Origin: Nemertoderma westbladi
Taxonomy: Eukaryota > Animalia > Xenacoelomorpha
Assembly (NCBI GenBank): GCA_032718475.1
Contig: JAUCBJ010003566.1
Span: 1-44,800, forward strand
DNA length: 44,800 nt
Direction of reading: 5' to 3'
Shown here: positions 2,523 to 44,800 of the stretch, piece by piece
How the letters are laid out: each line of letters opens with the position of its first letter
Position numbering within the stretch: the stretch's first letter is position 1
The notes under the pieces: generated by a model
The model's database searches: none
Told to the model about the DNA's origin: nothing
Seen by the model: the letters and a program-made list of their open reading frames with translations, nothing else
Translations under genes and position numbers: made by a program

Positions 2523-3507
2523 ACTAAATAACAGGTCATGCAGCGAGCGGATTGCTGAAATTTCCCTATTTATGACACTATTTTCATAATATTTTCTTAG
2601 AAACCTCTTTTATGCTACTTTGGTTAGGCGGATATGATGACTAGGGTTCATAGAAATGTAATAAAATGTCTTTCTGGAATTTTTATATTGTTGTTGTCAT
2701 GGTAACCGGGTACAAATTCAAACTTTGCGTGTCTGTAATTCAAGACGATGGGGGATTCTGTTCTTTAGATTTGGCAGGTGAGTATAGGAAATAAAAGTCA
2801 TCAAAATATTTGAAAGGTACACTTTTTTCAATCCCGTTTCCATGGTAATGAGTGTAACGATAATTTCACATTATGACCGCCAGGTAGAAATTGGGCTAAT
2901 ATTTTCTATTTATATCATTTGTAACTGACGTCCCTGGGACCTGTCCTTTTTTTCTAATAATTGCAAACCAAAATTTAATATTCTGGAATCTTAAAATCAT
3001 AATATCCACAGTTCTTGCTCTCTGATTGGACAGTTTTGTTTATTGGCACTTTATGACCTTTGCAATTAAGATTCACAATTGACGATTGATAAAATATTAT
3101 AATGTTGGTATTTTTAACTTAAAAATGGTGTTTTATAGAATTGGTTGACAATTATTCAAATTTTTCATTATACATATTACCATGGCAACGGGATTGAAAA
3201 AATATTATTTAAATGTAGAAAACTTTGATAAACCCTCACTCCCATTACTCGCCTACCAAATCTCAAGAACAGAATCCCTCGTCGTCTTGAATTACAGACG
3301 GGCAAAGTTTGAATTTGTACCCGGTTACCATGACAACAACAATATAAAAATTCCAGAAAGACCTTTTAATACATTTCTATGAACCCTAGTCATCATATCC
3401 ACCTAATAAATGTTGCATAAAATAAGTTCCTTCTGAAAATTAATGAAAATAGAGCCATAAATAGGAAAATTTCAGCAATCCGCTCGCTGCATGACCTGTT
3501 ATTTAGT
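2523..3507. mobile_element. Non-autonomous foldback element/MITE with about 340-bp inverted arms
   Basis: actaaataacaggtcatgcagcgagcggattgctgaaattt (2523 onward) is the reverse complement of aaatttcagcaatccgctcgctgcatgacctgttatttagt (ending 3507). Similarity continues inward to about 2860/3170. No clean TSD and no coding capacity. Confidence 0.88.
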
Positions 3508-3977: not shown

Positions 3978-6388
3978 CCTCCTTGCGCCCGTGGCCCGCG
4001 TGAAGGTGAGCTTCCAAGCTCCTCCTTGCGCCCGTGGGCCCGCGTGAAGGTGAGCTTCCAAGCTCCTCCTTGCCCGCGTGGCCCGCGTGAAGGTGAGCTT
4101 CCAAGCTCCTCCTTGCGCCCGTGGGCCCGCGTGAAGGTGAGCTTCCAAGCTCCTCCTTGCGCCCGTGGGCCCGCGTGAAGGTGAGCTTCCAAGCTCCTCC
4201 TTGCGCCCGTGGCCCGCGTGAAGGTGAGCTTCCAAGCTCCTCCTTGCACCCGTGGCCCGCGTGAAGGTGAGCTTCCAAGCTCCTCCTTGCGCCCGTGGCC
4301 CGCGTGAAGGTGAGCTTCCAAGCTCCTCCTTGCGCCCGTGGCCCGCGTGAAGGTGAGCTTCCAAGCTCCTCCTTGCGCCCGTGGCCCGCGTGAAGGAGAG
4401 CTTCCAAGCTCCTCCTTGCCCGCGTGGCCCGCGTGAAGGTGAGCTTCCAAGCTCCTCCTTGCGCCCGTGGCCCGCGTGAAGGAGAGCTTCCAAGCTCCTC
4501 CTTGCGCCCGTGGCCCGCGTGAAGGAGAGCTTCCAAGCTCCTCCTTGCCCGCGTGGCCCGCGTGAAGGTGAGCTTCCAAGCTCCTCCTTGCGCCCGTGGC
4601 CCGCGTGAAGGAGAGCTTCCAAGCTCCTCCTTGCGCCCGTGGCCCGCGTGAAGGTGAGCTTCCAAGGTCCTCCTTGCGCCCGTGGCCCGCGTGAAGGTGA
4701 GCTTCCAAGGTCCTCCTTGCGCCCGTGGCCCGCGCGAAGGTGAGCTTCCAAGCTCCACCTTGCGCCCGTGGCCCGCGTGAAGGTGAGCTTCCAAGCTCCT
4801 CCTTGCGCCCGTGGCCCGCGTGAAGGTGAGCTTCCAAGCTCCTCCTTGCGCCCGTGGCCCGCGTGAAGGTGAGCTTCCAAGCTCCTCCTTGCGCCCGTGG
4901 TCCGCGTGAAGGTGAGCTTCCAAGCTCCTCCTTGCGCCCGTGGCCCGCGTGAAGGTGAGCTTCCAAGCTCCTCCTTGCGCCCGTGGCCCGCGTGAAGGTG
5001 AGCTTCCAAGCTCCTCCTTGCGCCCGTGGCCCGCGTGAAGGTGAGCTTCCAAGCTCCTCCTTGCGCCCGTGGTCCGCGTGAAGGTGAGCTTCCACGCTCC
5101 TCCTTGCGCCCGTGGCCCGCGTGAAGGTGAGCTTCCAAGCTCCTCCTTGCGCCCGTGGTCCGCGTGAAGGTGAGCTTCCACGCTCCTCCTTGCGCCCGTG
5201 GCCCGCGTGAAGGTGAGCTTCCAAGCTCCTCCTTGCGCCCGTGGCCCGCGTGAAGGTGAGCTTCCACGCTCCTCCTTGCGCCCGTGGCCCGCGTGAAGGT
5301 GAGCTTCCAAGCTCCTCCTTGCTCCCGTGGCCCGCGTGAAGGTGAGCTTCCAAGCTCCTCCTTGCGCCCGTGGTCCGCGTGAAGGTGAGCTTCCAAGCTC
5401 CTCCTTGCTCCCGTGGCCCGCGTGAAGGTGAGCTTCCAAGGTCCTCCTTGCGCCCGTGGCCCGCGCGAAGGTGAGCTTCCAAGCTCCACCTTGCGCCCGT
5501 GGCCCGCGTGAAGGTGAGCTTCCAAGCTCCTCCTTGCGCCCGTGGCCCGCGTGAAGGTGAGCTTCCAAGCTCCTCCTTGCGCCCGTGGTCCGCGTGAAGG
5601 TGAGCTTCCACGCTCCTCCTTGCGCCCGTGGCCCGCGTGAAGGTGAGCTTCCAAGCTCCTCCTTGCGCCCGTGGCCCGCGTGAAGGTGAGCTTCCACGCT
5701 CCTCCTTGCGCCCGTGGCCCGCGTGAAGGTGAGCTTCCAAGCTCCTCCTTGCGCCCGTGGCCCGCGTGAAGGTGAGCTTCCAAGCTCCTCCTTGCGCCCG
5801 TGGTCCGCGTGAAGGTGAGCTTCCACGCTCCTCCTTGCGCCCGTGGCCCGCGTGAAGGTGAGCTTCCAAGCTCCTCCTTGCGCCCGTGGCCCGCGTGAAG
5901 GTGAGCTTCCAAGCTCCTCCTTGCGCCCGTGGTCCGCGTGAAGGTGAGCTTCCAAGCTCCTCCTTGCGCCCGTGGCCCGCGTGAAGGTGAGCTTCCAAGC
6001 TCCTCCTTGCGCCCGTGGCCCGCGTGAAGGTGAGCTTCCAAGCTCCTCCTTGCGCCCGTGGCCCGCGTGAAGGTGAGCTTCCAAGCTCCTCCTTGCGCCC
6101 GTGGTCCGCGTGAAGGTGAGCTTCCACGCTCCTCCTTGCGCCCGTGGCCCGCGTGAAGGTGAGCTTCCAAGCTCCTCCTTGCGCCCGTGGTCCGCGTGAA
6201 GGTGAGCTTCCACGCTCCTCCTTGCGCCTGTGGCCCGCGTGAAGGTGAGCTTCCAAGCTCCTCCTTGCGCCCGTGGCCCGCGTGAAGGTGAGCTTCCACG
6301 CTCCTCCTTGCGCCCGTGGCCCGCGTGAAGGTGAGCTTCCAAGCTCCTCCTTGCTCCCGTGGCCCGCGTGAAGGTGAGCTTCCAAGCT
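3978..6388. repeat. GC-rich satellite, 43-bp unit, about 56 copies
   Basis: Unit ctcctccttgcgcccgtggcccgcgtgaaggtgagcttccaag; the 43-aa periodicity in all three minus-strand ORFs confirms the unit length. Confidence 0.98.
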
Positions 6389-6694
6389 TCTCTGTAGATT
6401 TCTGTTACCAAACATTTTGCAGGTAAATGGCTCTCAGCTGCGATTCAGCACAGTTGCGTGGCGCACAGCTGCTTGTGGAGCTCGATTCTCTGTAATAGTG
6501 TTGCAACGGGATCCCGATCCAGATGGAAAAATATCGGGATTTGCTCTATCTGAATTTATATGCCCTGCAGCTCAAAATTTGTAAAAATGTTACCAATAAC
6601 AGAAACAACAATTTTTCAGATAGGGGGGGAAACTGGACACACACATAAAAATATCTCTCCAGGGGAAACTGGACGCAAATCCCAGAAATGGTGA

Positions 6695-7161
6695 ATTTGG
6701 GATTTGGATTTTGGTAATAAGGAATTTGGGAATAAGGAATTTGGGATTTGGGAATAAGGTATTTGGGATTAAGGTATTTGGGATTTGGGAATACGGTATT
6801 TGGTATTTGGGAATAAGGTATTTGGGATTTGATTTGGGATTAAGGTATTTGGGATTTGGGAATAAGGTATTTGGGATTTGGGAATAAGGTATTTGGGATT
6901 TGGGAATAAGGTATTTGGGATTTGGGAATAAGGTATTTGGGATTTGGGAATAAGGGATTTGGGATTTGGGAATAAGGGATTTGGGATTTGGGAATAAGGT
7001 ATTTGGGATTTGGGAATAAGGTATTTGGGATTAAGGTATTTGGGATTTGGGAATACGGTATTTGGTATTTGGGAATAAGGTATTTGGGATTTGATTTGGG
7101 ATTAAGGTATTTGGGATTTGGAATTAAGGTATTTGGGATTTGGGAATAAGGAATTTGGGAT
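6695..7161 (+). repeat. Left subterminal telomere-like array (about 22-bp unit GGGAATAAGGTATTTGGGATTT)
   Basis: Directly visible G-rich array built from TTTGGGA and TAAGGTA subunits; reverse complement of 13876-14256. Confidence 0.95.
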
Positions 7162-7718
7162 CTGCCATTATTGGTTCTCTGAAGAAGATAAGCAATGCGA
7201 ATCTCATTACGCCTCTCCTCAACAAGTCAACCCCACCGACTAGCGGCTCTGGCTGTTTCCGCTGACGGGTCTCAGTTGAACAACGCGTCCTTTGGGATCT
7301 GGGATTTGGGATTAACGTTTTTTGTTTATATTTCAACAAACGAACAAAGATTATATAAATGAATACTGTAGAGTTATTGCCCAGGCCAAATGACCTTTAC
7401 ACGACCTATGGTCAAGCATATTGTTCGATCTTCCTTGGACATGTGGTATGTACAGTAATACATATTTGTGCCATTAAACGTTAATCTTCTATGAACCTAA
7501 TATCCTCCTTAGTCAATTGGCAGAGGTAATAATATAATAATATAATAATATATATAATAATATAATATAACGGCAGAAAGTCTGGTATTCTTCACATGGG
7601 CCCTGCAGTTTGCAGTTGAATAATACTAGTAGTAGTGTTTTATTATTAGTTTTTTAAGAGGCGTTTTCGTTAAGATATTCAATTATCTTAATATTTAATT
7701 TTCATACTTTCTTTGGTG

Positions 7719-9023
7719 ATGTTTTGCTGTGGGTTTCGCATGAAGACTATTGAGATTAGAGCAGATTGGTATGGAGAAAGTGGCAAAAAAGAATTTGTTG
7801 GGGTGCGATATAAATGTAGGGGAAATTCTCGACAATTTGTGAAGGGTTGTGGAAGAAATTTAAAGCCTGGATTAACCATAACTGAGTCCACATTTGAGTA
7901 TACTAATTTTGCCAATGATGCAATTGTATTTTGGGTGACAAATGTTAGTGTGTTTTCAAAATCTTTATTGAATCGATTTATAAGAGAATTGCACGTATTT
8001 GGTGCTACATTTGATGCTATTGCGATTAATTACCGAATAGAAACAGGTTGTGAGATAGAAAAACATTTATTATCCCAGGCTTTAGTCATGTATCGAATGC
8101 TGCAGTTCCATGTTATATGTAATTTACCTCCTATATTACAAAAATCATCTGTTATAGAAAATATGACATCGCATCATTTTGACATAGAGACATTTCTGGA
8201 AGGTAGTGGCTATGCTTCACATATTGATGAGTTACTACACAATAATCATTTAAATTGTAATGTTCCGAAATGTTCAGATGTAATTGTCGTTGATGGAAAT
8301 TATAAGCTTTTTCGAGGTATGTGTGGCAGGCCTCTAGATAACGGCGACGTTTGTGATTCTTCTGTAAAATTAGAAGCCGATGGCATGGTTAGGTGCAAAA
8401 TACATGGACCAGTTTCCAAACCTACAAAATCCTCAGAGTGCGATCTTCAACGTACAGATATGGAGTGTTCAAAAGTAGTGCCGAAGTTTTCAGGCCGTAC
8501 ATGTGGTGTTCTATTTGGGGTTAGGTCATGCGGATATGTCGAGTCATTTGCTGAAATGTCAAAAAAGGAAAGTCTGAAACAAGTTGCTGATTTTATAAGC
8601 GTTGACTATAAGGATACCAAATTAATAATTTATGATTATGCATGTGGACTTGATAAGTACGTAACTAGCCGTCGTCCCCATGAATGGTTGTTCATGGTAG
8701 ATAAATTCCATGTAAAAGGCCATAAATCACCAGAGTGTAAACCTGGTGGAGTCAATTACTTTTCTCATTCAAAGTTTCTGGAATACGAGCACATTAATTC
8801 TTCTGCAGCTGAACAATTTAACAAAAAGGCCAATCGTTCGAAGTCTACACTTAACTTTTGTTCGAAAAATATGTTTTACTTTTTCCTGCGATCTTATATA
8901 GTTTTCTATAATACATATGGGTCAATAAGCTTAAAAGTGGCCAATGGTTTGTCCGGAAGTTACGATATAATTTTAAATGCTTTAATTTATTCGTATTTAA
9001 TAAAGTTATATATTATTTTGTAG
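7719..9023 (+). CDS. KDZ (Kyakuja-Dileera-Zisupton)-family transposase with CxC5/CxC6-like cysteine clusters, 434 aa from first ATG
   Basis: Ordered motifs: HLNCNVPKC-VIVVDGNYKLFRGMC (first Asp), GVRSCGYV..FAEM..KES, IIYDYAC (second Asp), VDKFHVKGH..C, INSSAAEQFN (Glu), then an F..FL...I...N helix. N-terminal CC...YG.SG...YKC...C and C..PL...C...RC.IH clusters. Intact, intronless and inside the TIRs. Confidence 0.88.
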   Translation: MFCCGFRMKTIEIRADWYGESGKKEFVGVRYKCRGNSRQFVKGCGRNLKPGLTITESTFEYTNFANDAIVFWVTNVSVFSKSLLNRFIRELHVFGATFDAIAINYRIETGCEIEKHLLSQALVMYRMLQFHVICNLPPILQKSSVIENMTSHHFDIETFLEGSGYASHIDELLHNNHLNCNVPKCSDVIVVDGNYKLFRGMCGRPLDNGDVCDSSVKLEADGMVRCKIHGPVSKPTKSSECDLQRTDMECSKVVPKFSGRTCGVLFGVRSCGYVESFAEMSKKESLKQVADFISVDYKDTKLIIYDYACGLDKYVTSRRPHEWLFMVDKFHVKGHKSPECKPGGVNYFSHSKFLEYEHINSSAAEQFNKKANRSKSTLNFCSKNMFYFFLRSYIVFYNTYGSISLKVANGLSGSYDIILNALIYSYLIKLYIIL

Positions 9024-9903
9024 CTAATTTATTTGCGCAGCTTACGCACTAAAAATGATCAAAATCTGTAAAGGCAGTCAAAAGAAATGCCCCATCAAAG
9101 ACTGAAATATCGTGAAAATCACTTGTCCCTTACATGACAAGACCACAAACAACTGTAAATTGTATCACCCCACGTGGCAAATATATAGGAAACCTATATA
9201 TTGTTGGGGAGCTTAGATGTTTTGCTTTCTTTTCCGATATATTTCAGGCCATAATATTCATGTTGAACCATTTGAGATCGATACATAAAATGGGCATGGA
9301 TTTTTCAATTTTTGTGTCACATCTGTAACATTTACGTCTAGAATCTGAAGTAGTAACTGTAGGTTTTCAGTTTTGATATATTTAGAATCTACAGGGTTTC
9401 TAACATATATAGGCCAAATATCACATACAAAGGACAAGGTCATCTCATTTGGGAAGCATTTATGTTTAACAAAGTCAATATAGAAAGCATAAACGTCCAT
9501 ATCTGTAACGCTACAAATGTGGCCATAGATTTTGATAATATTAATCTCATACAAGTATAATGGTACGTGTGGAAAGGCAATTTTAATTTATGCCGCATCA
9601 ACCCCAAGAGTTAATGTGATAAATAAACACCTATGATGTATGGCGGTGGTAAGCGTTTTTGTCAACCATCTGTAACGCGTCACCGTTACAGTGCAGTGCG
9701 TTACAGATAGGGCATGTCTCATCTGTAACGCATTATATAACCAGTTATCGATGCGTTAAGACTATAGGTTTTCAGTCATATCTATATGACAGTCTATCTG
9801 TAACCTGAAATACAATAAGGCATCACTGACAATATTTGAATGCTTACGCGTTTGAGACGTCATTCGTCTTCCTACTGACATCCTGCTCATGGTAATGTGG
9901 TAG

Positions 9904-10195
9904 TGTAAGATGGGTAAGTGTAAAACGCGGAACCGGATGCAGGATCCGGATCGGTACCCGGATTTTGGGGTTAAAACGCGGATCCGGATTTTCATGAAAT
10001 CCGGAAATGAGTCCAAAATGCGTTTTCAAGATAATTTTCATTGTCAAGTGTTACTGGATCCCGTAAGGGGACTAAAACACGGATTCATGTTTATCTCTAT
10101 CCGGGAAGAGGTGATTGTGGATTCTGGGGAGTAAAGCGCAGATTCACTTCACCTATGAAATTGTATGAATCCAGAGCTTCTGGGTCCGTGGTAAA
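9904..10195. repeat. GC-richer patch of short palindromic ATCCGGAT/GGATCC motifs, probably a nested MITE fragment
   Basis: taaaacgcggaaccggat...ggatccggatc...taaaacgcggatccggattttcatgaaatccgga. No clear TIR or TSD. Confidence 0.4.
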
Positions 10196-11460
10196 TAATT
10201 TAGGAATTAATTGCAAATATATACAATCTCCATCTTATAAATTTTATGTATTAATAAAATGTGCTTTCTGGAAAATTTCGCTTTATTTCGTTTAGAATTG
10301 TAGAAGATACATTTCCTACAAACAGTGTTTTTTTTAACATACAATATATTGTACAGACGGTCCTTTGCCCAATGTTTTGTTTTTCGTTTTTCATGATTAG
10401 GGTCTGCAGACGTACAGTATATAGATAGACTTCAATAAATTTGTATGTCTAATTTCATCTGACATGAAGCAATAAATAAACAAAAGTAAAGAATCCACTG
10501 ACTGTTATCAGTGAGTCTTGTGTAACTTCAATGTAATGTAAGATTATAATTTACTCTAATGATTAAATTCTCTAATGCGTATAAAAGGCCTATATTTTAC
10601 TATCAATTTCTAAATCATTGGCTTAACATCACTTACTTACTTACATGACGGACTTGTGCACTACTTATATTATTGTGATAAGTTTAGTCAGATCCGTTTA
10701 TTGGATGAGTTAATGGGCGTCTCTGAATCAGTTGCAGAGAAACGCCAGGGAGCGGTTAAATAAGTACAGAGAAAAAATGGACCGCGGTTGTTATACAGAG
10801 TATTTTAAACAAGCATAAAAAGCGGCGCGATAGAGAAAATTTAACACGGGATAAAAAAAATCGTGTAAAACAAGATTATCGGTTACACAGAAAAATGTTA
10901 ATGAAAAACTTTTTCTATATTTATTGGAAATCATATGTATTAAGTACATATATAATTTTGTGGATGCGTTGGTTATGGTCAGATATCTCTGTTTGTTACA
11001 GATGTTTGTCCAATAAATTACCTTATTGTCGAAGCAATAAGTTATAAATACTGCAAAATCCATATAACATAATTACCGTTACAGATGGCCGTTACAGACG
11101 TTTGTCCCATAAATGTCATCACTGTAATGCGTTACAGTGGTAGACAAAAACGTTACAGATATGACATTAGTTTTTGCCATATATATCCCTTTGAGCAGCG
11201 CGTCATGCTCTCCCTCTACCATCACAAGATTCGCCATGAAATTAACTTTCGAATGGTGTATGGTATGGCACTAATTTCCGACAAAAATTTTTCGGTCAAT
11301 TTGTACCCCTTTTTGGCCACTTTTAAGCTTATTGACCCATATATATTGCATTAAACTTTGTTTTTCCCTACTAATACTTTTCATAATATTGGTTATTGTC
11401 GGTACATTAAATACAATTCGCATAATACCGGGTACTGTATTATTATATATATTATGGAAG

Positions 11461-12651
11461 ATGTCTAAACTGCTGCAATATACAACGAATAAATCTCAAT
11501 CTGCTGGTTGTACAAGTGGGCAGATAGCTATTCAGTTGATAAGTGCAACGTCAGTTATAATGGGAAAAGCAACAGTTAAACTTACCGATAATTGGTATGA
11601 GCCAGTCTTGGTATGGGCATGTAATATAGCGCAAAGTGGCTCCAATAAAAGTGCCGGGAGTAATGAATTGTGTGAAAGCATGAGGTTATTTGATGACGTG
11701 GGATACTATACTGACTTTACTATTGAAAAACTTTTGGCTGATCTGTCAACTAAAAACAGTAGAGCAACTTTGTTTTACGACGAGGGAAAACTATTCTTAA
11801 ACCAAACAGGAAGAGACAAGGCTCTGAAATCACGGGCACATTTGAATAGTCTGTATGGGGGTGGTTCAGTAGTTAAAGATACTGTAAGTGGTGGCAAAAT
11901 GGAAACTGAGTCTACGCGAGTTGCTGTGTTGATGAATATACAGCCGGGCCCATTCATAGATAAATTATTGGGAGATGATAACAATGATGGTTTAGCATCA
12001 CGATTTTTATTGGCCTTTAAAGAAGATCGCGAAGTGAGAACGTTTGAAAGTTTGAAATCTATTCCAAAGTTATCGACTAAAATCGCTGATATAATAAGCG
12101 CTGTACATAATTCTGCAGAGGGGATGGAATTTGTCTTTTCAGAAAATGCTGAACAAGAGTTTGCAGCATTCCACAATGATCACGAAGAAAGAATTAAAAG
12201 CCGTGATACAATGAAAGTAGATGTGATTCGCGATGCATTAAGTAAGAATAAAGGTATGGTGTCACGTATTAGTGCATGCATTCATGTCCTTGAACTGGTC
12301 TTCAGTGGGAAACCTATTGATAATGAAATAATGGGCAGCGATATTCAATACGCTATTGAACTGGTTCAGAATAGTGAGAACGCTCTTACAGTTCTAAGTG
12401 AATTAGGATACAACATACATGAAGAAGAAAAAAGTAAAGATCTTATCAACAATTTAAAACGTATTGTCGACAAAACACTTAAGGCCAACAAGAGCTTTAC
12501 ATACCAGACAATGAACGATCGTTGTTCTTCAATGCTAAAAGCTTTCAATATATCATCTCAAGAAGAATGGATATCACTTATGCAACGTCATGGTTTCGTG
12601 AAATCCCAAACGCTTAGAGGAAATAGGATTTGTTTCCAAGTTGAACAGTAA
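11461..12651 (+). CDS. DUF3987/YfjI-like AAA+ ATPase/helicase (396 aa from first ATG) with possible C-terminal winged helix
   Basis: Walker A-like IAQSGSNKS, DFTIEKLLADL, Walker B LFYDEG, LNSLYGG..V.KD, MNIQPGPF and DGLASRFL (Arg finger-like), in the order and spacing typical of DUF3987 proteins. Intact and intronless. Confidence 0.82.
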   Translation: MSKLLQYTTNKSQSAGCTSGQIAIQLISATSVIMGKATVKLTDNWYEPVLVWACNIAQSGSNKSAGSNELCESMRLFDDVGYYTDFTIEKLLADLSTKNSRATLFYDEGKLFLNQTGRDKALKSRAHLNSLYGGGSVVKDTVSGGKMETESTRVAVLMNIQPGPFIDKLLGDDNNDGLASRFLLAFKEDREVRTFESLKSIPKLSTKIADIISAVHNSAEGMEFVFSENAEQEFAAFHNDHEERIKSRDTMKVDVIRDALSKNKGMVSRISACIHVLELVFSGKPIDNEIMGSDIQYAIELVQNSENALTVLSELGYNIHEEEKSKDLINNLKRIVDKTLKANKSFTYQTMNDRCSSMLKAFNISSQEEWISLMQRHGFVKSQTLRGNRICFQVEQ

Positions 12652-12784
12652 ATTCTAACTAATTTCATATCTATCTATGTATCACATTGTTATACTGTAA
12701 TTCATATATATATCAGGCTTATAACTCATATATAGAGGCATATTATACTCTTCTACCTCAAGTCATTTATCGGTAAATCCGCAT

Positions 12785-13876
12785 TTCATTTTTGTATTCA
12801 TGCATATGCCTTTGTAACCCATTCTTTTACTAACCTGCATAACACGTGACACGTGTTATCTTTCGTTTATTGTTTTGGTTCTATCTACATGCTTCCGTAA
12901 CCTGCTCCTTTACTAACCTGCATAATCTTGTAACACGTGTTAACTATCGTTTATTGTTTTGGTTCTATCTACAGGCCTCTGTAACCAGCTCCTTTACTAA
13001 CCTGCATAATATTGTAACACGTGTTAACATTAACTATCTTTTCTTGTTTTTGTTTTATCTGCCCGCCTCTGTAACCTGCTCATTTACTAACCTGCATAAT
13101 CTTGTAACACGTGTTAACTATAGTTTATTGTTTTGGTGCTATCTACATGCCTCTGTAACCAGCTCCTTTACTAACCTGCATAATCTTGTAACACGTATTA
13201 ACTATCGTTTATTGTTTTGGTTCTATCTGCCCGCCTCTGTAACCTGCTCCTTTACTAACCTGCATAATCTTGTAACACGTGTTAACTATCGTTTATTGTT
13301 TTGGTTCTATCTACCCGCCTCTGTAACCTGCTCCTTTACTAACCTGCATAATCTTGTAACACGTGTTAACTATCGTTTATTGTTTTGGTTCTATCTACCC
13401 GCCTCTGTAACCTGCTCCTTTACTAACCTTCATAATCTTGTAACACGTGTTAACAATCGTTTATTGTTTTGGTTCTATCTGCCCGCCCCTGTAACCTGCT
13501 CCTTTACTAACCTGCATAATCTTGTAACACGTGTTAACTATCGTTTATTGTTTTGGTTCTATCTGCCCGCCTCTGTAACCTGCTCCTTTACTAACGTGCA
13601 TAATCTTATAACACGTGTTAACTGTCGTTTATTGTTTTGATTCTATCTGCCTGCCTCTCTAACCTGCTCCTTTACTAACCTGCATAATCTTGTAACATGT
13701 GTTAACTATCGTTTATTGTTTTGGTTCTTTCTACCCGCCTCTATATCCTGCTCCTTTACTAACCTGCATAATCTTATAACATGTGTTAACTATCGTTTAT
13801 TGTTTTGGTTCTATCTACATGCCTCTGTAATCTGCTCCTTACTAACCTGCATAATCTTATAACATGGGTTAACTAT
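12785..13876 (+). repeat. 84-bp tandem array (about 13 copies) inside the right part of the KDZ element
   Basis: Unit tactaacctgcataatcttgtaacacgtgttaactatcgtttattgttttggttctatctacccgcctctgtaacctgctcctt; 28-aa periodicity in ORF 12846-13640. Confidence 0.97.
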
Positions 13877-14256
13877 CCCAAGTACCTTATTCCCAAATTC
13901 CAAATACCTTAATCCCAAATACCTTATTCCCAAATCCCAAATACCTTATTCCCAAATCCCAAATACCTTAATCCCAAATACCTTATTCCCAAATACCTTA
14001 ATCCCAAATACCTTATTCCCAAATCCCAAATACCTTAATCCCAAATCCCAAATACCTTATTCCCAAATCCCAAATACCTTAATCCCAAATCCCAAATACC
14101 TTATTCCTAAATACCTTAATCCCAAATACCTTAATCCCAAATACCTTATTCCCAAAACCCAAATACCTTATTCCCAAATCCCAAATACCTTAATCCAAAT
14201 ACATTATTCCCAAATCCCAAATACCTTAATCCCAAATTCCTTAATCCCAAATCCCA
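13876..14256 (-). repeat. Right subterminal telomere-like array (AAATCCCAAATACCTTATTCCC)n
   Basis: Reverse complement of the 6695-7161 array; sits just inside the right TIR. Confidence 0.95.
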
Positions 14257-14965
14257 CATGGTATTTGCGTCCAGTTTCCCCCCCTGTCTCCAATTTTTTG
14301 GTTAACGGTTTTGATTTTACAACTACCTACAGTCAGTGCTACAGAGATATACAAGAATGTATCATATTATAAAATAATAGAAACACTTGTTGCTTTTTAT
14401 TGAATATGATAAACATATTGAAGTGGCAACGATTCAGTCAGACTGCAGTAGATATATGGGAAATAAACTACGACTGTGAAAACCATAAAAAAAAGTCGGT
14501 GGACATTTTTACATATCATTTTCTAGAACATGAGAACATGATTTTTACTCCTACAAAGATGGCAGGGCAGGACATCGATATCGTTTTGGAAAACATCGTT
14601 TTGGATGAGTTAATGGCCGCAATAAAATTAAAAATGCCGATCCCGACAGTGGCAATCCCGATCCCCTTGCTACACTATTCTCTATAGTAGAACTATGTGA
14701 CGCCTGTGATGTCTGCAGCAGAACTATCTGCTGCACAAGTTCATGAGTGTCATACACTCTAGTACTTTTTGTCGAAGCCAGCGGCATATAGGATGCAGCT
14801 GGTTCGAAAAGGGCTGTCTGATGTGTCATGATTTAGGGAGAACGATGAATCGAATATTACGTTTTAATGTAATTTTAACTTCAAAGAGCCATTTAACTAT
14901 GGAAAGTGTAATAATTCGAAAAAACTATAAATTAACTAACTTATTACCATTGGGGTTTCACGCTG

Positions 14966-15297: not shown

Positions 15298-15485
15298 AGT
15301 GTCTAGTTTTAACTGGCCACGCTAATAAATATAAGGTCGGAGGCAACAAGGAGACTCGCTAAACTATATATAATTATATTTAATATATCAGTGGTGGATA
15401 TATATATATATATATACCGGTACGGTAATAATGTTATACCTTCTTTTACACCAGGAGGTTCATTAATTAATTAATAATCACCAAC

Positions 15486-15714
15486 CTGACTTTGTCGCAG
15501 TCGCTTTAGGAGCACCAACTTGGTTTCCTCGGCGGCCAGCTGTTCCGTTAAGGTCTTTATTTTCCGTCGGACCAGCGTCAACCCCGATCCGTCGATGGCC
15601 TTGGCGCGAGTTCGACGGGACACCGGGGGGAGATTGGTCGCGCTGGGGACACTGCCGCTGGAGGCGCTGGAGACAGACGCCGGGGAGTCCGGTTGGGAGA
15701 GACTCGCGTACCGA
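15486..15714 (-). CDS. GATAD2: GATAD2/p66 (NuRD subunit) exon encoding the CR1 coiled coil
   Basis: IKTLTEQLAAEETKLVLLKRLRQSQ matches the p66 CR1 motif (L..EE.KLVLLK.LRQSQ). Acceptor tgtttatcccccAG at 15716-15715 and donor GTTGGT at 15485. Confidence 0.85.
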
Positions 15715-15851
15715 CTGGGGGATAAACAATCACGGTGGTTACAGGGGAGCAATCGGCGGGATCTCGGTGAATTAATATATATACCGCTACTAAATGTCCA
15801 ACCAGTACCGGTAGGCCTACTGCATAATACCGGTACCGGTACCAATTACAT

Positions 15852-15968
15852 GGTGGTCGGCCCATGACTTTCTTGAGACGCATCTTAAAGGACACTCGCC
15901 TTGAAGATGCGGATGATCTAGCAAATGTCATGGGTGATAGGGAGTTGTGGCGGTGCAATTTTGTCGAT
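15852..15968 (+). mobile_element. 3' fragment of an RTE-like LINE ORF2 in a GATAD2 intron
   Basis: Translates as GGRPMTFLRRILKDTRLEDADDLANVMGDRELWR, matching the GRP...DR..WR C-terminal signature. Confidence 0.65.
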
Positions 15969-16199
15969 AAGCCGGCACAGCATTCTTAAAAATGCAGCTG
16001 CAATGCATCATGCCGATCCTAGTAGTAGGTACCAATTAATTATTTAGTGGGGTAGTAAATTACACAGACCCTATTGATTTCATATGGTTTTCAGTCGAAA
16101 TCGCTAACTCTAGAAACGGGTAGTGAAATAAATGAATACCGGTACCAAATGATGGAAATAATTTATTTATGATGGGTAACTGTAACCTCTCCAACTCAC

Positions 16200-16922
16200 C
16201 TTATCGGTTTATCCGGGTACAATTTATCGCCATCGTTGTCGCTCGCCTCTTCCAGCTCGTCAACCGCCATAGCGGAAGGGATGTCTACCCGATCCGAATC
16301 AACCGAGGTTGGGTTGACTGGAGTAGAAGAACCATCATCCATCTCTTCGGGCCCACTGTCCATATCAACCTCTACATTGTCTGCAACCTCCATCAGTGAA
16401 CCATCACCACCCTCTGACGCGCTCTTCACCGCCTCAGGCACATCGCCAATCTCCACCACCGGCTCGGGCACACTGTCCATATCAACCTCTACATTGTCTG
16501 CAACCTCCATCAGTGAACCATCACCACCCACTGACGCGCTCTTCACCGCCGCAGGCACGTCGCCAATCTCCACCACCGGCTCGTTCTCAACACCCAGAGG
16601 TGCGAAAACGCCGCTACGCTTAGCGGCTACCGTGTCCGACATGAGAGAGGCGAAATCGACGGCCTCAACCGCGAGGGTGTCGCGTTCTGTAGTGGTGCCT
16701 CCGTGGAGTGCCCCCGAGGAGGGCTCGGTGGCACCGTCGGGGTAGCACTCCGCCTCGTCCGGATCGGACCCCGGACAGCCATCCGAGTCGGGGAGATCCT
16801 CCGAGCCGGAATCCAGACCCCCATTCACCGGATGGGTGTCGGTGTCGTCCCATCCGACACCGTTGTCCCCATTACTAAGCCGGACCTGCTTAGATGAAGG
16901 CTCCAAATTGTCCCCACATTCA
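16200..16922 (-). CDS. GATAD2: GATAD2 upstream acidic, low-complexity coding exon
   Basis: Open GC-rich frame, acceptor tttttttatttAG at 16924-16923 and donor AG|GTGAGT at 16199. Both ends are phase 2 and join in frame to the flanking exons (AC+T, AG+T). Confidence 0.78.
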
Positions 16923-17069
16923 CTAAATAAAAAAAAACAATAGGAACCCGGGTAATACAGTAGGCCGACCGCTACCGGTAATTGTAACCGGAGAAGGCAG
17001 TAAGAGTAAAGACATTTAACTTATAATATTACGGTTAAACCGTAATTAGTTTACAATTGAGCGACTTAC

Positions 17070-18623: not shown

Positions 18624-18844
18624 TAAGACATGGGCTTCAAAACTTGTCTGGTGACACTCAATTCAATTAAATAATAGTTATTATTATTGCGGAAAACAGT
18701 AGAAAGACAAGTCTTATTTGCGATTTTGATGGAAATTTACTGAAGTAGCTGTTAGCAGTTGTCGTCGTCGTCCACAAAAAGAGGGCCACGAACGGTAAGG
18801 GTAGAGGGAAACGGGGCGGGGCACGTTCCACAGGCTCAGATGAA

Positions 18845-20728
18845 GAGGGAAACGTTCCTGACAGAGAGAGAGAAACGTTCCCCATAGGGAGAGGGAAACG
18901 TTCCTCACAGGGAGAGGGAAACGTTCCTCACAGGGAGAGGGAAACGTTCCTCACAGGGAGAGGGAAACGTTCCTCACAGGGAGAGGGAAACGTTCCTCAC
19001 CGGGAGAGGGAAACGTTCTTCATCGGGAGACGTTCCTCACAGGGAGGGGAGAGGGGAACGTTCCTCACAGGGAGAGGGAAAAGTTCCTCACAGGGAGAGG
19101 GAAACGTTCCTCACAGGGTGACGGAAACGTTCCTCACAGGGAGAGGGAAACGTTCCTCACCGGGAGAGGGAAACGTTCTTCATCGGGAGACGTTCCTCAC
19201 AGGGAGGGGAGAGGGGAACGTTCCTCACAGGGAGAGGGAAAAGTTCCTCACAGGGAGAGGGAAACGTTCCTCACAGGGTGACGGAAACGTTCCTCACAGG
19301 GAGAGGGAAACGTTCCTCACCGGGAGAGGGAAACGTTCTTCATCGGGAGACGTTCCTCACAGGGAGGGGAGAGGGGAACGTTCCTCACAGGGAGAGGGAA
19401 ACGTTCCTCACAGGGAGAGGGAAACGTTCCTCACAGGGAGAGGGAAACGTTCCTCACAGGGAGAGGGAAACGTTCCTCACCGGGAGAGGGAAACGTTCTT
19501 CACAGGGAGAGGGAAACGTTCCTCACAGGGAGAGGGAAACGTTCCTCACAGGGAGAGGGAAACGTTCCTCACAGGGAGAGGGAAACGTTCCTCACCGGGA
19601 GAGGGAAACGTTCTTCATCGGGAGAGGGAAACGTTCCTCACAGGGAGAGGGAAACGTTCCTCACAGGGAGAGGGAAACGTTCCTCACAGGGAGAGGGAAA
19701 CGTTCCTCACAGGGAGAGGGAAACGTTCCTCACAGGGAGAGGGAAACGTTCCTCACAGGGAGAGGGAAACGTTCCTCACAGGGAGAGGGAAACGTTCCTC
19801 ACAGGGAGAGGGAAACGTTCCTCACAGGGAGAGGGAAACGTTCCTCACAGGGAGAGGGAAACGTTCCTCACAGGGAGAGGGAAACGTTCCTCACCGGGAG
19901 AGGGAAACGTTCTTCATCGGGAGACGTTCCTCACAGGGAGGGGAGAGGGGAACGTTCCTCACAGGGAGAGGGAAAAGTTCCTCACAGGGAGAGGGAAACG
20001 TTCCTCACAGGGTGACGGAAACGTTCCTCACAGGTAGAGGGAAACGTTCCTCACATGGATGGAAACGTTCCCTAACAGGGCAGGAAGAGGAAAACGTTCC
20101 ATACATGAAGAGGGAAACGTTCCTCACAGGGAGGGAAACGTTCCTCACAGGGAAACGTTCCTCACAGGGGAGGGAAGTGTTCCGCACAGAAAGAGGGAAT
20201 CGTTCCTCACAAGAGAGGGAAACGTTCCTCACAGAAAGAGGGGAACGTTCCTCACAAGAGAGGGAAACGTTCCTCACAAGAGAGGGAAACGTTCCTCTCA
20301 AGAGAAGGAAACGTTCCTCACAGAAAGGGGGAAACGTTCCTCACAAAGAGAGGGAAACGTTCCACACAGAAGAAAGAGGGAAACGTTCCTCACAAGAAAG
20401 GAAAACGTTCCTCACAAGAGAGGGAAACGTTCCTCACAGGGAGGGAAACGTTCCACAAAGGGAGAGGAAAACGTACCTCACAGCAGGGAGATGGAAACGT
20501 TCCTCACAGGGAGAGGGAAACGTTCCTCACCGGGAGAGGGAAACGTTCCTCACAGAAAGGGGGAAACGTTCCCCATAAGAAGGAAAACGTTCCTCACAAG
20601 AGAGGGAAACGTTCCTCACAGGGAGGGAAACGTTCCTCATCGGGAGATGGAAACGTTCCTCACCGGGAGAGGGAAACGTTCCTCACAGAAAGGGGGAAAC
20701 GTTCCTCACAAAGAGAGGGAAACGTTCT
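18845..20728. repeat. Satellite, 23-bp unit, about 80 copies, with a 160-bp higher-order repeat at left and a degenerate right third
   Basis: Unit gggagagggaaacgttcctcaca; variant blocks recur at a 160-bp offset (19118 and 19278). Confidence 0.98.
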
Positions 20729-27610: not shown

Positions 27611-27953
27611 GGGCCCATATGAAGAATACCAGACTTTCTGCCGTTATATTTCACTTTGCAGTTACCGGGGTTACCCCCATGTGAAGAATACCAGGTTTTC
27701 ACTTTTCGGTCGACTTTTTATTGGAATTTTATATATTGAGATTTTTTATTTTTTTTTAATTTATCTTCATTAAGTGTTTTATAGCGCTTATTTCTGTCTT
27801 ATAACCTGTACATATACTAATTCGTTTATTGTTTTGGTTAGATTCAGCCCTTCTGTAACCTGTGGTTTTAGTGAAAACCTGGTATTTCTTCACATGGGGG
27901 TAACTGCAAAGTGAAATATAACGGCAGAAAGTCTGGTATTCTTCACGTGGGCC
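27611..27953. mobile_element. MITE with about 55-bp TIRs
   Basis: GGGCCCATATGAAGAATACCAGACTTTCTGCCGTTATATTTCACTTTGCAGTTACC is inverted at 27899-27953. Confidence 0.85.
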
Positions 27954-28167
27954 AAGAATACCAGGTTTTCACCAAAAACACAGGTTACAGAAAGGCTGAA
28001 TCTAACCAAAACAATAAATGAATTAGTATATGTACAGGTTATAAGACAGAAATAAGCGCTATAAAACACTTAATGAAGATAAATTAAAAAAAAATAAAAA
28101 ATCTCAATATATAAAATTCCAATAAAAAGTCGACCGAAAAGTGAAATCCTGGTATTTTTTACATGGG
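27954..28167 (-). repeat. Inverted duplicate of the MITE interior 27676-27890
   Basis: Near-perfect reverse complement over about 215 bp. Confidence 0.9.
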
Positions 28168-29237
28168 CGGAATTAAGTATCGTATAAATTGTCTAAATCT
28201 ATATCAAGAGCATCAATCAACGCATCAATTGCAATATTGGAGTCATTTATTGACGCTGACGCATCAACCAACCGAGAAACCCAAACTATTAAAATTGTAC
28301 CGGAATAAAATAAATCGTATACGTCCACGATGTTGGCGAATCTAACCCGAATAACTAACTGACTCGGTATAACCAGGCAACCGGGGTATCGGCAGTGTTG
28401 TGTGGAAGTGAAAAGTAAAACACAGTTAAACAAAGATGAAAAAAAGTCAGGAAAATCCCTGACATGGTGGTTTATTATTTGTATAAAAATATTTACAAGA
28501 ACCGGTTTAAACCGGTCATCACATAATGTTCGCGACATTTTAATTTCGCGAATATTATTCTCTCTGACGTCACCGGTTCTCAGGAATATATAATTTACAA
28601 ACATCTCATAACAAAATGCGCTTTTGCGAACAGCTGATTGGCTACTTTCACAACATACTAGAAGGCCATTACTTATCCAATGGGTATTTGGCAGCAATAA
28701 CGGTAACTACACTGTTACCAACATTACAAAAACACACTCACCGGTAACTGTGCTACCTTCACCTTTACCCATATCGCGGATGTCTGCATTCTGGGACATA
28801 TTTTAGAAAATTACGTTTTTGGGAAATCCTTGAAAGTTATGAATAGTATCAACGGTGTAATTTACCATTTTCACGTATGTTCATGTTCCTGGATGATCAC
28901 TATTTTACCATAAACGTACACATCAGCCATACTACTAACAGCAAACCAGCATTACTGTACAGCATGCTTTGGATTTAGGCAGTTTAAATGTCGCATGCAT
29001 GCCGTTCCCCAATAGGTTAATTTATCTATCGTGTTCCGTACGTCACTTGCATTTAATGTTACAGTAATTCCAAAATATTAAATATATTTCTCTGTTTCTC
29101 ATCACGGGCGCCTTCATCTCATAACTTTACCTTGTCAAGATTTAACTGTTACCTGTGTCATTGTTTCCCGTTTATTGTTTTGGTTAGAATAACGTGCCAC
29201 TGTAACCCACTACTTTCTATTAATTAATCAACCTAAT

Positions 29238-29818
29238 CGGCCCTTCGTCCCAAATGGAACACCGTCCCGTCCGGCCTTTCGTCCCAAATGGACCATCGGC
29301 CTGTTCGGGCCTTCGTCCGAAATGGACCACCGTCCCGTCCGGCCTTTCGTCACAAATGGACCATCGGGCCTTCGTCCCAAATGGACCATCGTCCCGTCCG
29401 GCCCTTCGTCCCAAATGGACCATCATCCCGTTAGGCCCTTCGTCCCAAATGGACCATCGTCCCGTCCGGCCCTTCGTCCCAAATGGACCATCATCCCGTT
29501 AGGCCCTTCGTCCCAAATGGATCATCGGCCTGTTCGGGCCTTCGCCCCAAATGGAACATAGTCCCGTCCGGCCCTTCGTCCCAAATGGACCATCATCCCG
29601 TTAGGCCCTTCGTCCCAAATGGACCATCGTCCCGTCCGGCCCTTCGTCCCAAATGGACCATCATCCCGTTCGGCCCTTCGTCCCAAATGGATCATCGGCC
29701 TGTTCGGGCCTTCGCCCCAAATGGAACATAGTCCCGTCCGGCCTTTCGTCCCAAATGGACCATCGGCCCGTCCGGCCTTTCGTCCCAAATGGACCATCAT
29801 CCCGTTCGGGCCTTCATC
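29238..29818. repeat. Minisatellite, 34-bp unit, about 17 copies, with a 170-bp (5-mer) higher-order repeat
   Basis: Unit gcccttcgtcccaaatggaccatcgtcccgtccg; ORFs at 29483 and 29653 repeat at a 170-bp offset. Confidence 0.96.
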
Positions 29819-30573
29819 CTGGAACCTTTCCCACAGTAATTGTGGATGATTCAGATTCACTGAGAGTTATCTGTTTCTTTGGGAGTGATCTTGTGAAAGT
29901 TTCATCACACACACCTTCTTCGTGAGATCCTTTCCTAAGTTAGATGCGTGTTCTTTAGTTATATTGTGATGTGATCGAGAAATACTGTAATACTTAAATT
30001 ATATGTTCTTACTGTAATAAATCGTTACCGCACCTACATTTATTTCTGCACTTTCCCTGTGAATTTCATTGAATTTTGAGGAAATCCTTGGAATTTGGGC
30101 CCTTAGTGGCAGTTAAGTTAGTCTGTCGTTCTAAGGCAAAAATCACTGAACTCGAATTTTGACGAACATGCTATTTATAGTGGTATCATTTTAAAGCTTA
30201 CGGGTACGGCTGGTAGTGGTACTGTATAACTTATACAGTAGACAAGCTTGCCAGCCGAGAGCTGCCAATAATGGGCGGATCCATTGCTATCTATATATTT
30301 TTGTTGTAATAATTTACGCGCCTATGCAGGGCAGCCTAATAACGAAAAACTAAACATTGGGCGAAGTACACAATTGTATTGTAGTATATAATATTGTATG
30401 TAAAAAAAACACTGTTTGTAAGAAAGGTATCTTTTCCTACAATTCTAAACGAAATATAGCGAAATTTTGCAGAAAGCATGTCCAATAGAAGCTCCCTATG
30501 GGGTGTCGACAGAATTTTTATTGAGTGAATTCTACGATTATGATCGGTCATTCTAGAATTAATTTCAATGTTG

Positions 30574-34524: not shown

Positions 34525-34875
34525 TTATTTGTTGAAGTTTCGGTGGAGAGATATCTGTACGTTCATAACGAGATCGATTAGTTTGGATATCACTTCCTCG
34601 CTCTTCTCCTTCACCTGGTGGTCCATCTCCTGGATCTGTCGATCTGTTTGCTCTTGTATTTGGCGTTGGACTTCCTCTTTGGACCCCATATGCTTTTTCT
34701 CGTGCTCTCGGTACTGTTGTTCGCGCTCCTCGTTGTATTTCTTCACTTCCGCCTGTGCCTCCTCTTTCGCTTGTTTCAGCCGTCGTCCTTTCTTCTTTCT
34801 CGCTTCCGCTACTTTCTCGGCCGCTCGCTTTTCCGCTGCTAATAGCTGCTGAATCCCCTGAGTCTGGGACGCCAT
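34525..34875 (-). CDS. ATP6V1G: V-type proton ATPase subunit G, intronless CDS, 116 aa
   Basis: [43 protein letters not shown]...HMGS...LHRNF is the canonical animal subunit G sequence, full length. Confidence 0.98.
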
Positions 34876-37323
34876 AATTCAGTGATTTGAATTTGCGAAA
34901 ACCGGTATGGCCTACCGAGGGCTGTAGCAGTAAGGTGTACGGGTACAGCGGTATCAGCAGATCAGGGTATGCTGGTATTTTACTACTGTCTGACTGTACT
35001 ACAGTGCTACCGGTACCCCTATAGCAGCACTACACACAGCAGCAGTAAAGCAGTAAAAAGGGAAAACTGTTGTCAGTTGTTGTCTGCAGTTTATAATATT
35101 ACTACTGAGTAGTAGAACTACCGGCGACGCACAAGGCCTACAAGGTACAGTAATTACGAAATTTTCGATATTTCACGAAAAAATTCTAATTTTAATAAAA
35201 ATAATGTATCAGTTTATTTATATCATCAGTAGCCTACTGTTTGATGTATTTTATTAAATACTGTATCAAGCGAATTTATACTTTTAAGGGGAGGGTGGTA
35301 CTGACTTTTAAATATTTGATTAATTTTTATAAATTAATTTTTTATTTTTTTTTCTACTGTATGTCATCTTACAGTCAACAGTCTTAGAGTACACCATGTC
35401 CCGTAATATAGTGTAATAATACCCCCCCCCCCCCCCCCCTCAGATTTTTCTACAAATCTTTATCATATTGCTTGAAATTTGAAACACAACTAGTTCCACT
35501 CACCGTCGATGACCCCATGAAGCCGGAATTTTCGATTTTGCCTTTAAATTTTTTTTATAAGCGTTTTAAAAAAGTGTCTTTTGCGAAATCGCACCCTCTG
35601 TATCGTAGCCATTCTTCACATTAGTCGTAATTTTTTCATATCATTAAAAAGCTTGCGTTGCAAGGATTCCAAATATGTAACAATATCTGAATTTCGTTGA
35701 GAAACAGCTGAGATATATGAGATCTGAGGAATGTGAAAATAATTAAATTAGTCTGTTTGGTAAATATGTTGATAAAATGCAGACATGGTACGTAAATGTC
35801 AGATTTGTAATCGGACAATAATTTTTTCGGAATTTTAACTATTTAATTATAACTTTTTGGGGGAATTTTTAGGATTTGGCTATTCTGTTATTGACGAAAA
35901 TAACTAAAAAGTACAGTAACTACTGAAAAGTAGTTTAAGTGGAAAGTGTTGCTGAATAGAAAAGATTCGGAAGAGAAGATCAAAGAAAAATTAATTTCAA
36001 ATTATTAGACAGTTAGGTGGATTTTGGTTTTAATGTGGTCTTATTCAATGAATAACTCGATACGTCGTTGTTCATAAAATAGCCCTTTATAGGCCTAGAG
36101 TTTTGACACGAGTGTGTTGTTTCCCGAGCGACAGCGAGAGAAATAACAAAACGAGGGCCGTAATAGTTATTTATTACATGGAGAAAAAAGTGGAACTTTT
36201 TTTCGTTATTCTCGATGAGGCATTTCATCTACCGAGCGCTAGGGAGGTTAACAAAGGTTCGAGAGAATATTTTAAAAAATGTTCTACGTCTTTTTCCCCA
36301 TGTAATAATACGTAATTTTCTTTTAAATTGGTACTTTTTTGTTGCTTATATGTAATTCTTCAATAAAACATAGAAAGATGTAGTGATAGAAAATAAATTG
36401 AACTGTAGTATTAAACTATATTGCTTCCATAGTTTCTGCGATTCAAATTATTGGACTCTTCAACTCCTAGTGCTGCCTTACTCAATGTTCAATAATTTAG
36501 TGTTTACGAATATTTATTACGTAACTAGAGAGCCGCTTAACTACATAAACCAATATTGGATATTGAGTTCCGTTTTGGAGTTCGCCTTGCAGACACTAAA
36601 GTTGCAATAACTTTTGAGTGTGTGAATGGATTTTGCTCAAATTACTTGCAAACCTTTTATATGTCGAGCTCTTTCAACACATTAAATAAAATTTAAGAAA
36701 TTCCACCAAAAATATTTTTATTTACTTTTTCGCCGGGAAGAAAGTAAAAGCAGCAATCATTTTTTTCATCATCCTATGGGTTACTTTGCGGCGGCCTTGA
36801 AAGTTCAAACAACTATTATTGAGTATTCTAGGCATATGCTCAAGTTAGGTGATTGTCGATTCGCCCCTAAACTTATGTAATCTATGTATTATTGATTGGA
36901 TTAAAATAAAAAAATGTATTTAATTGGTACAAATATTTGGTTGAATTAAATTTTGAATTAAAAAAACTATTCCGTAAAAATATAACTATTTAAGTGGAGT
37001 GGCAAAAAAAGTAGGTTTTTTTGTAGAGCGAAAGCAAGACAACAAATGTTACTTTTTGCCACTCTTCTCACTTTTATCTGGACCTATTTTTAGGTATAAA
37101 TATCGTCCATCGAAGTGTCTTCCATAGAAAAATACCGTTATATAAAGCGAAATAGCAAAACAGGGTCTGTAATATAGGCCCTCTATTATGATATTTATAG
37201 TATTCTAGAATATTAAGTAACCTGTGGATACAATAAGCGCTATCTATTTAAATGTAATTATTATTAATGTCATGGAAATTACGTTTAAATTTGAATCGAA
37301 CATAACTTTTGTTGACAAAGAAG

Positions 37324-38210: not shown

Positions 38211-38226
38211 CTATAAAAAAAAGTAT

Positions 38227-38790
38227 AATATGGGTGGTGTACACGCACACTACATGTAATATGGGTGGTGTACACGCACACTACATGTAATATGGGTGGT
38301 GTACACGCACACTACATGTAATATGGGTGGTGTACACGCACACTACATGTAATATGGGTGGTGTACACGCACACTACATGTAATATGGGTGGTGTACACG
38401 CACACTACATGTAATATGGGTGGTGTACACGCACACTACATGTAATATGGGTGGTGTACACGCACACTACATGTAATATGGGTGGTGTACACGCACACTA
38501 CATGTAATATGGGTGGTGTACACGCACACTACATGTAATATGGGTGGTGTACACGCACACTACATGTAATATGGGTGGTGTACACGCACACTACATGTAA
38601 TATGGGTGGTGTACACGCACACTACATGTAATATGGGTGGTGTACACGCACACTACATGTAATATGGGTGGTGTACACGCACACTACATGTAATATGGAT
38701 GGTGTACACGCACACTACATGTAATATGGGTGGTGTACACGCACACTACATGTAATATGGGTGGTGTACACGCACACTACATGTAATATG
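38227..38790. repeat. Minisatellite, 31-bp unit, about 18 nearly identical copies, in the last syntrophin intron
   Basis: Unit aatatgggtggtgtacacgcacactacatgt. Confidence 0.98.
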
Positions 38791-39162
38791 TGTGGACAAA
38801 GGAAAATTAAAAAAATATATTTAAATAGCAATAAATAATACATATTTAAGTGGGGTGGAGAAAAAAGTAGACTTTTTTTCGACCGATATTATTTGGCGAG
38901 AGTAGCGAGACAATATGACGATTTGTTTAAACACCAGTAGGTACTACTACAGTACTGGTGTTTAAAAACAGTCAAGTCTACCTAATGCTACTAACTCTAC
39001 CTAAGTGCTTATCCTAATTTAAAAATTAGTGTTTGTTGTAGGGCAGGGCCTACTAAATTCATTGTGCTCATGCTCACATAGTATATAGTCAGTCAGTCCT
39101 TGTCAATGTCAACTATAAATAACTACTGTTGAAATTAATGTAATAATAATTCAATAAACGAC

Positions 39163-44765: not shown

Positions 44766-44800
44766 GATGTAGGGTGCGTGGTCAAAATGACTCCAGTCAG

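Follow-up and report, generated by a model that had tools for sequence, protein, structure and literature searches.

What does a gene for a DUF3987 ATPase, a family for which all the literature found is prokaryotic or phage, do in the genome of the animal Nemertoderma westbladi, and what could its product bring to the DNA that carries it? The window analysed here is a stretch of 44,800 nucleotides of this genome, in which the gene lies inside a DNA transposon. The features to which the following argument refers are these:

6609 to 6616, plus strand: target site duplication, left copy, 8 bp, CAATTTTT
6617 to 14290, plus strand: whole DNA transposon, 7,674 bp as assembled, reduced to 5,250 bp when the nested insertion is left out
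6617 to 7161, plus strand: left end, with a 22-bp terminal inverted repeat followed by a G-tract-rich 22-bp subterminal array (6695 to 7161)
7740 to 8918, plus strand: likely KDZ transposase ORF, interrupted near the 3' end where the nested element sits; its empty-site form has 396 codons
8919 to 11338, no strand given: nested inverted-repeat element of 2,420 bp with ATAT on either flank, a host repeat
11461 to 12651, plus strand: DUF3987 ORF of 396 aa, with an AAA+ domain (about 1-315), a long helix and a predicted winged helix (about 345-395)
12808 to 13877, plus strand: tandem array with an 84-bp unit (12.7 copies) that separates the helicase gene from the right end
13875 to 14290, minus strand: right end, with the inverted subterminal array (13875 to 14256) and the terminal repeat (14269 to 14290)
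14291 to 14298, plus strand: target site duplication, right copy, 8 bp, CAATTTTT
15471 to 17020, minus strand: spliced p66/GATAD2-like gene with a P66_CC domain and GT donors, outside the transposon

The limits of the transposon are set by its ends, whose terminal 22-bp repeats agree at 20 of 22 positions and which match each other at 84.5% over 426 columns. The flanking 8-bp duplication is exact at this one insertion site, whereas random pairs of non-repeat 8-mers from the flanks are identical at a rate of 8.6e-5, a chance figure to be read with the few registers that were possible. Two genes were found in this compact element, the KDZ-like ORF and the DUF3987 ORF; some Pfam matches on a frame of the 84-bp array were rejected as repeat artefacts, as no stretch of it passes. 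The subterminal arrays (6695-7161 and 13875-14256) carry 38 and 29 G3 tracts, respectively, on the strand that runs 5'-3' inward from each end, with a mean G4Hunter-type score of about 0.9. Going by their composition, it is possible that these G-rich ends form quadruplexes, which would make them a candidate substrate for a helicase.

The first of the two genes, to judge from its sequence, likely belongs with the KDZ transposases. Its ORF is numbered here from 7740, the first ATG of the frame being at 7719, and the Pfam KDZ model matches it at E-values of 0.0016-0.005 (17-18.6 bits, under the cut-off of 26.6). Its Atlas neighbours are KDZ, CxC5 and CxC6 clusters, and eight of its ten best named matches agree in family or clan with scores of 0.90-0.94 (recognition 2298, against a guide of 2300). 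The CxC5 and CxC6 neighbours presumably point to Kyakuja, and D185, D299, H324/H328 and E358 are candidate catalytic residues. The element is classed as KDZ-like and not as Kyakuja because it combines an 8-bp duplication with long terminal inverted repeats (TIRs), whereas the fungal Kyakuja elements show 7-bp duplications and CA..TG ends, and lack TIRs (PMC12730594, in part). According to the same source, it shares the 8-bp target duplication, seen here at one site, with Zisupton and Dileera, and the TIRs with Zisupton. A KDZ-like transposase, an accessory gene and a nested insertion are likewise traits of KDZ elements (PMC12730594, PMC12477816 and PMC9297572, each in part), although the transposase frame has about 396 codons here as against more than 1,300 aa there, and the accessory gene encodes an SF6 helicase instead of the TET/JBP proteins described in PMC12730594.

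In the assembled copy, and in this copy only, the transposase and helicase genes are separated by the nested element, which is absent from contigs that span the site. Such contigs join position 8913 to 11338, skipping 2,424 nt, and were found in three of four DNA runs, from two studies. One contig of 2,179 nt in run X1 goes from the transposase into the helicase; its transposase portion has 0 differences from the window, and its helicase portion shows 2 differences and 11 gap letters. A contig of 1,833 nt in run X2 likewise leads from one gene into the other, with 0 differences. Since these contigs span the nested site and are near-identical to the window, there is a form of about 5.25 kb (5,250 bp) in which the two genes are uninterrupted and co-directional, with the stop of the transposase frame 106 nt ahead of the helicase ATG. 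An in-frame fusion of the two proteins was considered and rejected, given the 2,424 nt skipped, the different frames and the stop 106 nt before the ATG; a fusion by splicing may occur.

The contigs across the join have depths of 195-1,394, as compared to 9-182 for most other small joint contigs of the same runs, which hints at several young copies, with the proviso that depth is unusable as a copy number because runs X2 and X3, from one sample, differ about sevenfold. Run X4 has zero cover over the transposase and the 5' portion of the helicase ORF, in a data set whose contigs show presence and not absence, and the best-matching run may be the window's own sample. The substitutions seen in the contigs are four, two silent and two residue-changing, too few for a test of selection. 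Contigs that start near 12153-12197 (region 12153-12790) have a depth unlike that of the contig upstream, which hints at non-autonomous derivatives that retain just the 3' portion of the helicase ORF. The nested element itself contains no wholly internal frame of more than 109 aa and is deep in all four runs; its ends allow two readings, GGG..CCC flanked by a duplication of 4 bp (ATAT) and TGGG..CCCA flanked by one of 2 bp (TA). Shorter, internally deleted forms were also seen, with joints from 9333/9334 to 11294/11298, and a repeat within it (10262-10391), 82% like 30338-30478 on the opposite strand, is the deepest stretch in all runs.

The second gene runs from an ATG at 11461 to a stop at 12649-12651, 396 aa without any in-frame stop. 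An earlier note, made from the letters of this DNA alone, had read it as a DUF3987 ATPase, and that identity is upheld by the Pfam DUF3987 family (PF13148; E 1e-33, 117.2 bits against a curated cut-off of 27) and by structural matches to MCM and DUF3987 proteins. PHROG 2373, 'DNA helicase', is also matched (E 7e-19), and 30 of 30 Atlas neighbours are DUF3987 clusters. All five motifs pointed out in the note are found where it had placed them: AQSGSNKS at residue 57, DFTIEKL at 85, FYDEG at 105, NIQP at 159 and DGLASRFL at 176. It was also right that the protein has no primase domain. The MCM match of the structural model begins at residue 1, no primase family was found in the ORF or in the 21 other frames or frame pieces scanned in the window, and none is fused to the ORF or directly upstream of it, where the neighbouring gene is the KDZ-like ORF; among the scanned frames of the transposon, polymerase and HUH nuclease families were equally absent. 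The claim that the gene has no introns stands from the ATG to the stop; upstream of the ATG the gene may have a short exon, as 59 residues precede the Walker A glycine against a median of 83-93 in its relatives. Pfam gave no winged-helix match in the ORF and Rfam no match at all. A PDB sequence search gave no hit with the protein, and with the profile only weak P-loop and LexA-type hits.

The same note had singled out a variant Walker A, with Asn in place of Gly before the lysine, in an ATPase that otherwise retained its K-S, DE and arginine residues. The Asn is present and the second half of this statement holds, but the Asn is not supported as a notable variant. Residues were counted over the best 150 of 587 phmmer matches at E <= 0.001, in which the position before the lysine is Leu in 29, Gly in 22, Lys in 20 and Asn in 16, with others making up the remainder, whereas K63, S/T64 and E108 are each conserved in 149/150 and R181 in 150/150. 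Gly occupies this position in 22 of the 139 prokaryote-type rows and Asn in 8, and in a 10-member clade nearer to the ORF it is Asn in every member. On these alignments the Asn is an ordinary residue at a position that is free in DUF3987, and no defect. The ORF does keep K63-S64, D107-E108, Q161, R181 and R269, which include the presumed arginine finger and sensor. Among the 32 columns conserved at 80% or more, it retains 21 (K63, D107, E108, Q161, R181 and R269 included) and deviates in 11, with changes such as G158M, P187K and R141T, T141 being common to the ORF and the Asn clade. The catalytic positions are all retained, yet the best relatives share just 25-32% identity.

A model of the protein was built with AlphaFold2 on the 150-row alignment and reached a mean pLDDT of 87.8; because the rows are mostly prokaryote-type, it depicts the fold of the family. 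Another model, on a 9-row alignment, had a pLDDT of 39.5 and was discarded. All 50 structural matches listed from the PDB are MCM proteins (Z 18.8-20.8), the top one with Z 20.8 and an rmsd of 3.5 over 275 residues, covering model residues 1-312, and the best viral matches include phage DUF3987 proteins, with E-values down to 6.5e-16, as well as helicase and primase-helicase proteins. The matches listed in this structural comparison, of a kind that the note had proposed, are MCM AAA+ proteins and, among viral ones, DUF3987 proteins. The winged-helix-like, helical C-terminus that had been noticed in the letters reappears in the model as three helices and a two-strand wing (345-395, pLDDT 64-78), and certain structural alignments extend to residue 396, which they pair with the end of Mcm5/Mcm4. 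The model has no MCM N-terminal tier. The ORF is predicted to encode an MCM-like AAA+ domain plus a winged-helix tail, and this tail agrees with the classification of DUF3987 proteins as SF6 members that have a winged helix at the C-terminus (PMC4889955, in part).

One alternative is that the gene is prokaryotic or phage DNA brought in by contamination or misassembly. The prokaryote-type profile does score the ORF highest, with 198 bits against 115 and 91, through rows that were themselves selected by the query. However, the 8-bp duplication is exact in the host flanks, a host repeat is nested within the transposon and part of it recurs at 30338-30478, and the stretch, in whole or in part, is present in runs that three studies made from the same organism. 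Besides, the spliced p66/GATAD2-like gene, to our knowledge of an animal-specific family, lies 1.2 kb from the right end of the transposon and is transcribed towards it. Farther along the window, a gene for V-ATPase subunit G, which consists of one unbroken frame (34525-34878), scores 90-100 bits with 118-aa PDB entries, which we take to be mammalian, and at most 48 with the others. The spliced gene, the V-ATPase G scores, the 8-bp duplication and the nested repeat make contamination very unlikely. Two more proposals of the earlier note are borne out in this way: residence in an animal genome, by the duplication, the contigs of the same organism and the nearby spliced gene, and the status of transposon accessory, by the position of the ORF within the bracket of TIRs and target duplications, beside the likely KDZ transposase gene. 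The ends of the transposon, its target duplication and the nested insertion are additions to what the note had described. A long acidic exon of the p66/GATAD2-like gene contains a duplication of 117 bp (16347-16583); neither the GATA finger pattern nor later p66 exons were found in the window.

With regard to the relatives of the helicase gene, a first tree of 73 rows grouped the query with P0038, which was rejected as a long-branch join, and the final tree was rebuilt from 42 of the 73 rows, with P0038, P0046 and P0161 among those left out. In the latter, the query, on a long branch, and two related clades are separated from 27 prokaryote-type rows (95/98), whereas an AU test does not reject a position of the query beside two prokaryote-type rows (p 0.16), and C-terminal profile scores of 0-8.6 bits are too weak to place it. 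The label 'prokaryote-type' is based on one member, a Planctomicrobium YfjI, and on the fact that 59 of 126 have a long N-terminal extension. The two clades grouped with the query are probably eukaryotic. One of them has 63 members found, on contigs of up to 10 Mb, and the ten related-clade clusters looked up contain numerous copies, complete and partial, spread over different contigs, a pattern that suggests mobile genes in large genomes. The DUF3987 family is likely of prokaryotic or phage origin, one ancient transfer into eukaryotes is plausible and independent transfers may have occurred; the nearest relative is only 25-32% identical. Word-index homolog searches gave 0 of 3,561 candidates with the single protein and 5 of 7,993 with the 9-row alignment, and tblastn against phages gave no match to the protein. 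Insensitive pattern scans for related-clade genes found none in three sets of viral contigs (0/13, 0/17 and 0/34) and one hit in 11 prokaryote genomes, a 23-residue match (E 7e-4) that was not counted, together with 4 of 165 in metagenomes, on contigs of 1.0-1.5 kb with frame breaks and no neighbours.

As for the function of the protein, the reading that we favour, with a probability of roughly 55%, is that of a ring helicase serving the transposon itself: during transposition it would unwind the DNA of the ends or of the donor site. The protein would form an oligomer, hydrolyse ATP and unwind in the 5'-3' direction, by analogy with its relatives, among them AgaPH, a bacterial DUF3987 protein described as an oligomeric, Walker A/B-dependent 5'-3' helicase (PMC11724360, in part). 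Since neither primase nor polymerase was found in the transposon, it would act on transposition intermediates or alongside host replication and repair enzymes. This reading is supported by the position of the ORF between the TIRs and target duplications, co-directional with the transposase gene and 106 nt past its stop, by the contigs from two studies that each run from transposase into helicase, and by a fold that matches MCM in a protein that keeps its catalytic positions at 25-32% identity. Precedents exist in KolobokH and AcademH, DDE transposons that bring along a helicase (PMC9587614 and PMC10799480, in part). Against the reading stand the 11 deviating conserved columns and the absence of an MCM N-terminal tier. 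In addition, KDZ transposition has no general need of a helicase, as none figures in the descriptions of fungal and fish KDZ elements (PMC12730594 and PMC9297572, in part).

An ATPase in this position could also serve as IstB, TnsC or MuB do, coating or bending target DNA and recruiting or activating the transposase with no need for unwinding. The order of transposase then AAA+ ATPase is that of IS21, where IstB is essential (PMC12486865, in part), the DUF3987 protein has neither an N-terminal DNA-encircling tier nor a primase partner, and its winged helix could dock a partner. Against this, the structural comparison lists MCM and DUF3987 proteins and no transposition regulators, and the sole characterised DUF3987 protein found, AgaPH, is a true helicase (PMC11724360, in part), so that such a role seems unlikely. 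It is distinctly unlikely that the gene, functional or recently so, is passenger cargo dispensable for movement. Accessory genes are frequent on KDZ elements (PMC12477816, in part), TET/JBP genes are said to travel between lineages 'passively' (PMC12730594, in part), and the deviating depth of the contigs from about 12153-12197 would fit derivatives with only the 3' part of the gene; on the other hand, the transposon is compact, with just two genes found, the catalytic residues are all retained over deep divergence, and the related clades, whose numerous complete and broken copies are scattered over different contigs, resemble mobile genes in this respect.

Finally, a slender chance is left for replicative movement of the copy-out or peel-off kind, in which the helicase would open the transposon from a nicked end and host polymerases would copy it. 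Phages and islands use DUF3987 proteins as replicative helicases (PMC4889955 and PMC11724360, in part), and the long inverted arrays give each end an inward-running G-rich strand, but no primase, polymerase or HUH nuclease family was found in the scanned frames of the transposon, whose TIRs and 8-bp duplication are typical of ordinary Zisupton/Dileera elements (PMC12730594, in part). Going beyond the reading as the transposon's own helicase, it is a rather doubtful proposal, tentatively made, that the element is a young, near-intact member of an animal DDE transposon lineage dependent on a phage-derived AAA+ ring motor, either as a eukaryotic counterpart of ATP-driven transposition in the IS21/Tn7/Mu style or as a replicative TIR element.

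The ORF resembles the DUF3987/YfjI SF6 helicases in its predicted MCM-like AAA+ fold, C-terminal winged helix, K-S/T, DE, Gln and arginines. In contrast to the DUF3987 helicases of phages and islands, it has no fused or nearby primase and no PriCT domain, and it sits in a eukaryotic TIR transposon; its segment behind Walker A is much shorter, with 26 residues from K63 to E89 as compared to a median of 71. A transposase and host repair are taken to be all that eukaryotic cut-and-paste transposons require. RecQ helicases are monomeric, and IstB, TnsC of Tn7 and MuB of Mu are target-capture regulators from a different, non-MCM-like AAA+ clade. These last systems are prokaryotic, whereas the DUF3987 ORF is MCM-like and found in an animal, although IS21 also combines in one element a transposase followed by an AAA+ ATPase (PMC12486865, in part). 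A RecQ-type helicase is carried by the DDE TIR transposons KolobokH and AcademH (PMC9587614 and PMC10799480, in part), where, as here, the helicase is encoded next to the transposase or downstream of it; their helicase is of the RecQ type (SF2) and not AAA+ SF6, and their transposases belong to other superfamilies. In the accessible portions of this literature no tests of what transposon-borne RecQ helicases do were found.

No DUF3987-bearing eukaryotic transposon was found among the papers covered by the literature search, and the parts of PMC5718144, PMC9297572 and PMC9940879 at hand contain nothing on one. An intact SF6 helicase gene on a KDZ-like TIR transposon is thus a pairing that was not found in print, although a prior annotation, for instance in Repbase, could exist. 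With it, the KDZ-like element adds to TIR transposons a second helicase class, unrelated to RecQ, and brings a phage replication module into the animal mobilome. Because its genes are short and in single frames, and near-identical copies occur in independent samples, the transposon offers a practical system for the role of the helicase and for KDZ movement, and if a lineage dependent on an AAA+ motor were real, the 5.25-kb two-gene form would make it directly assayable.

The remainder of the window contains other repeats. Minus-strand frames at 2-1385, truncated at the window start, resemble the gag of an LTR retrotransposon (zf-CCHC_5, E 7.5e-5, under cut-off). GC-richer minisatellites, several of which yield long spurious open frames, are located at 3978-6392 (units of 43 bp), 18844-20727 (23 bp), 29238-29819 (34 bp), 38226-38795 (31 bp) and 39646-44766 (39 bp). 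Long inverted-repeat pairs at 2523-3507 (262 nt at 90%) and 27671-28172 (216 nt at 96%) are probably fold-back or MITE-type elements.
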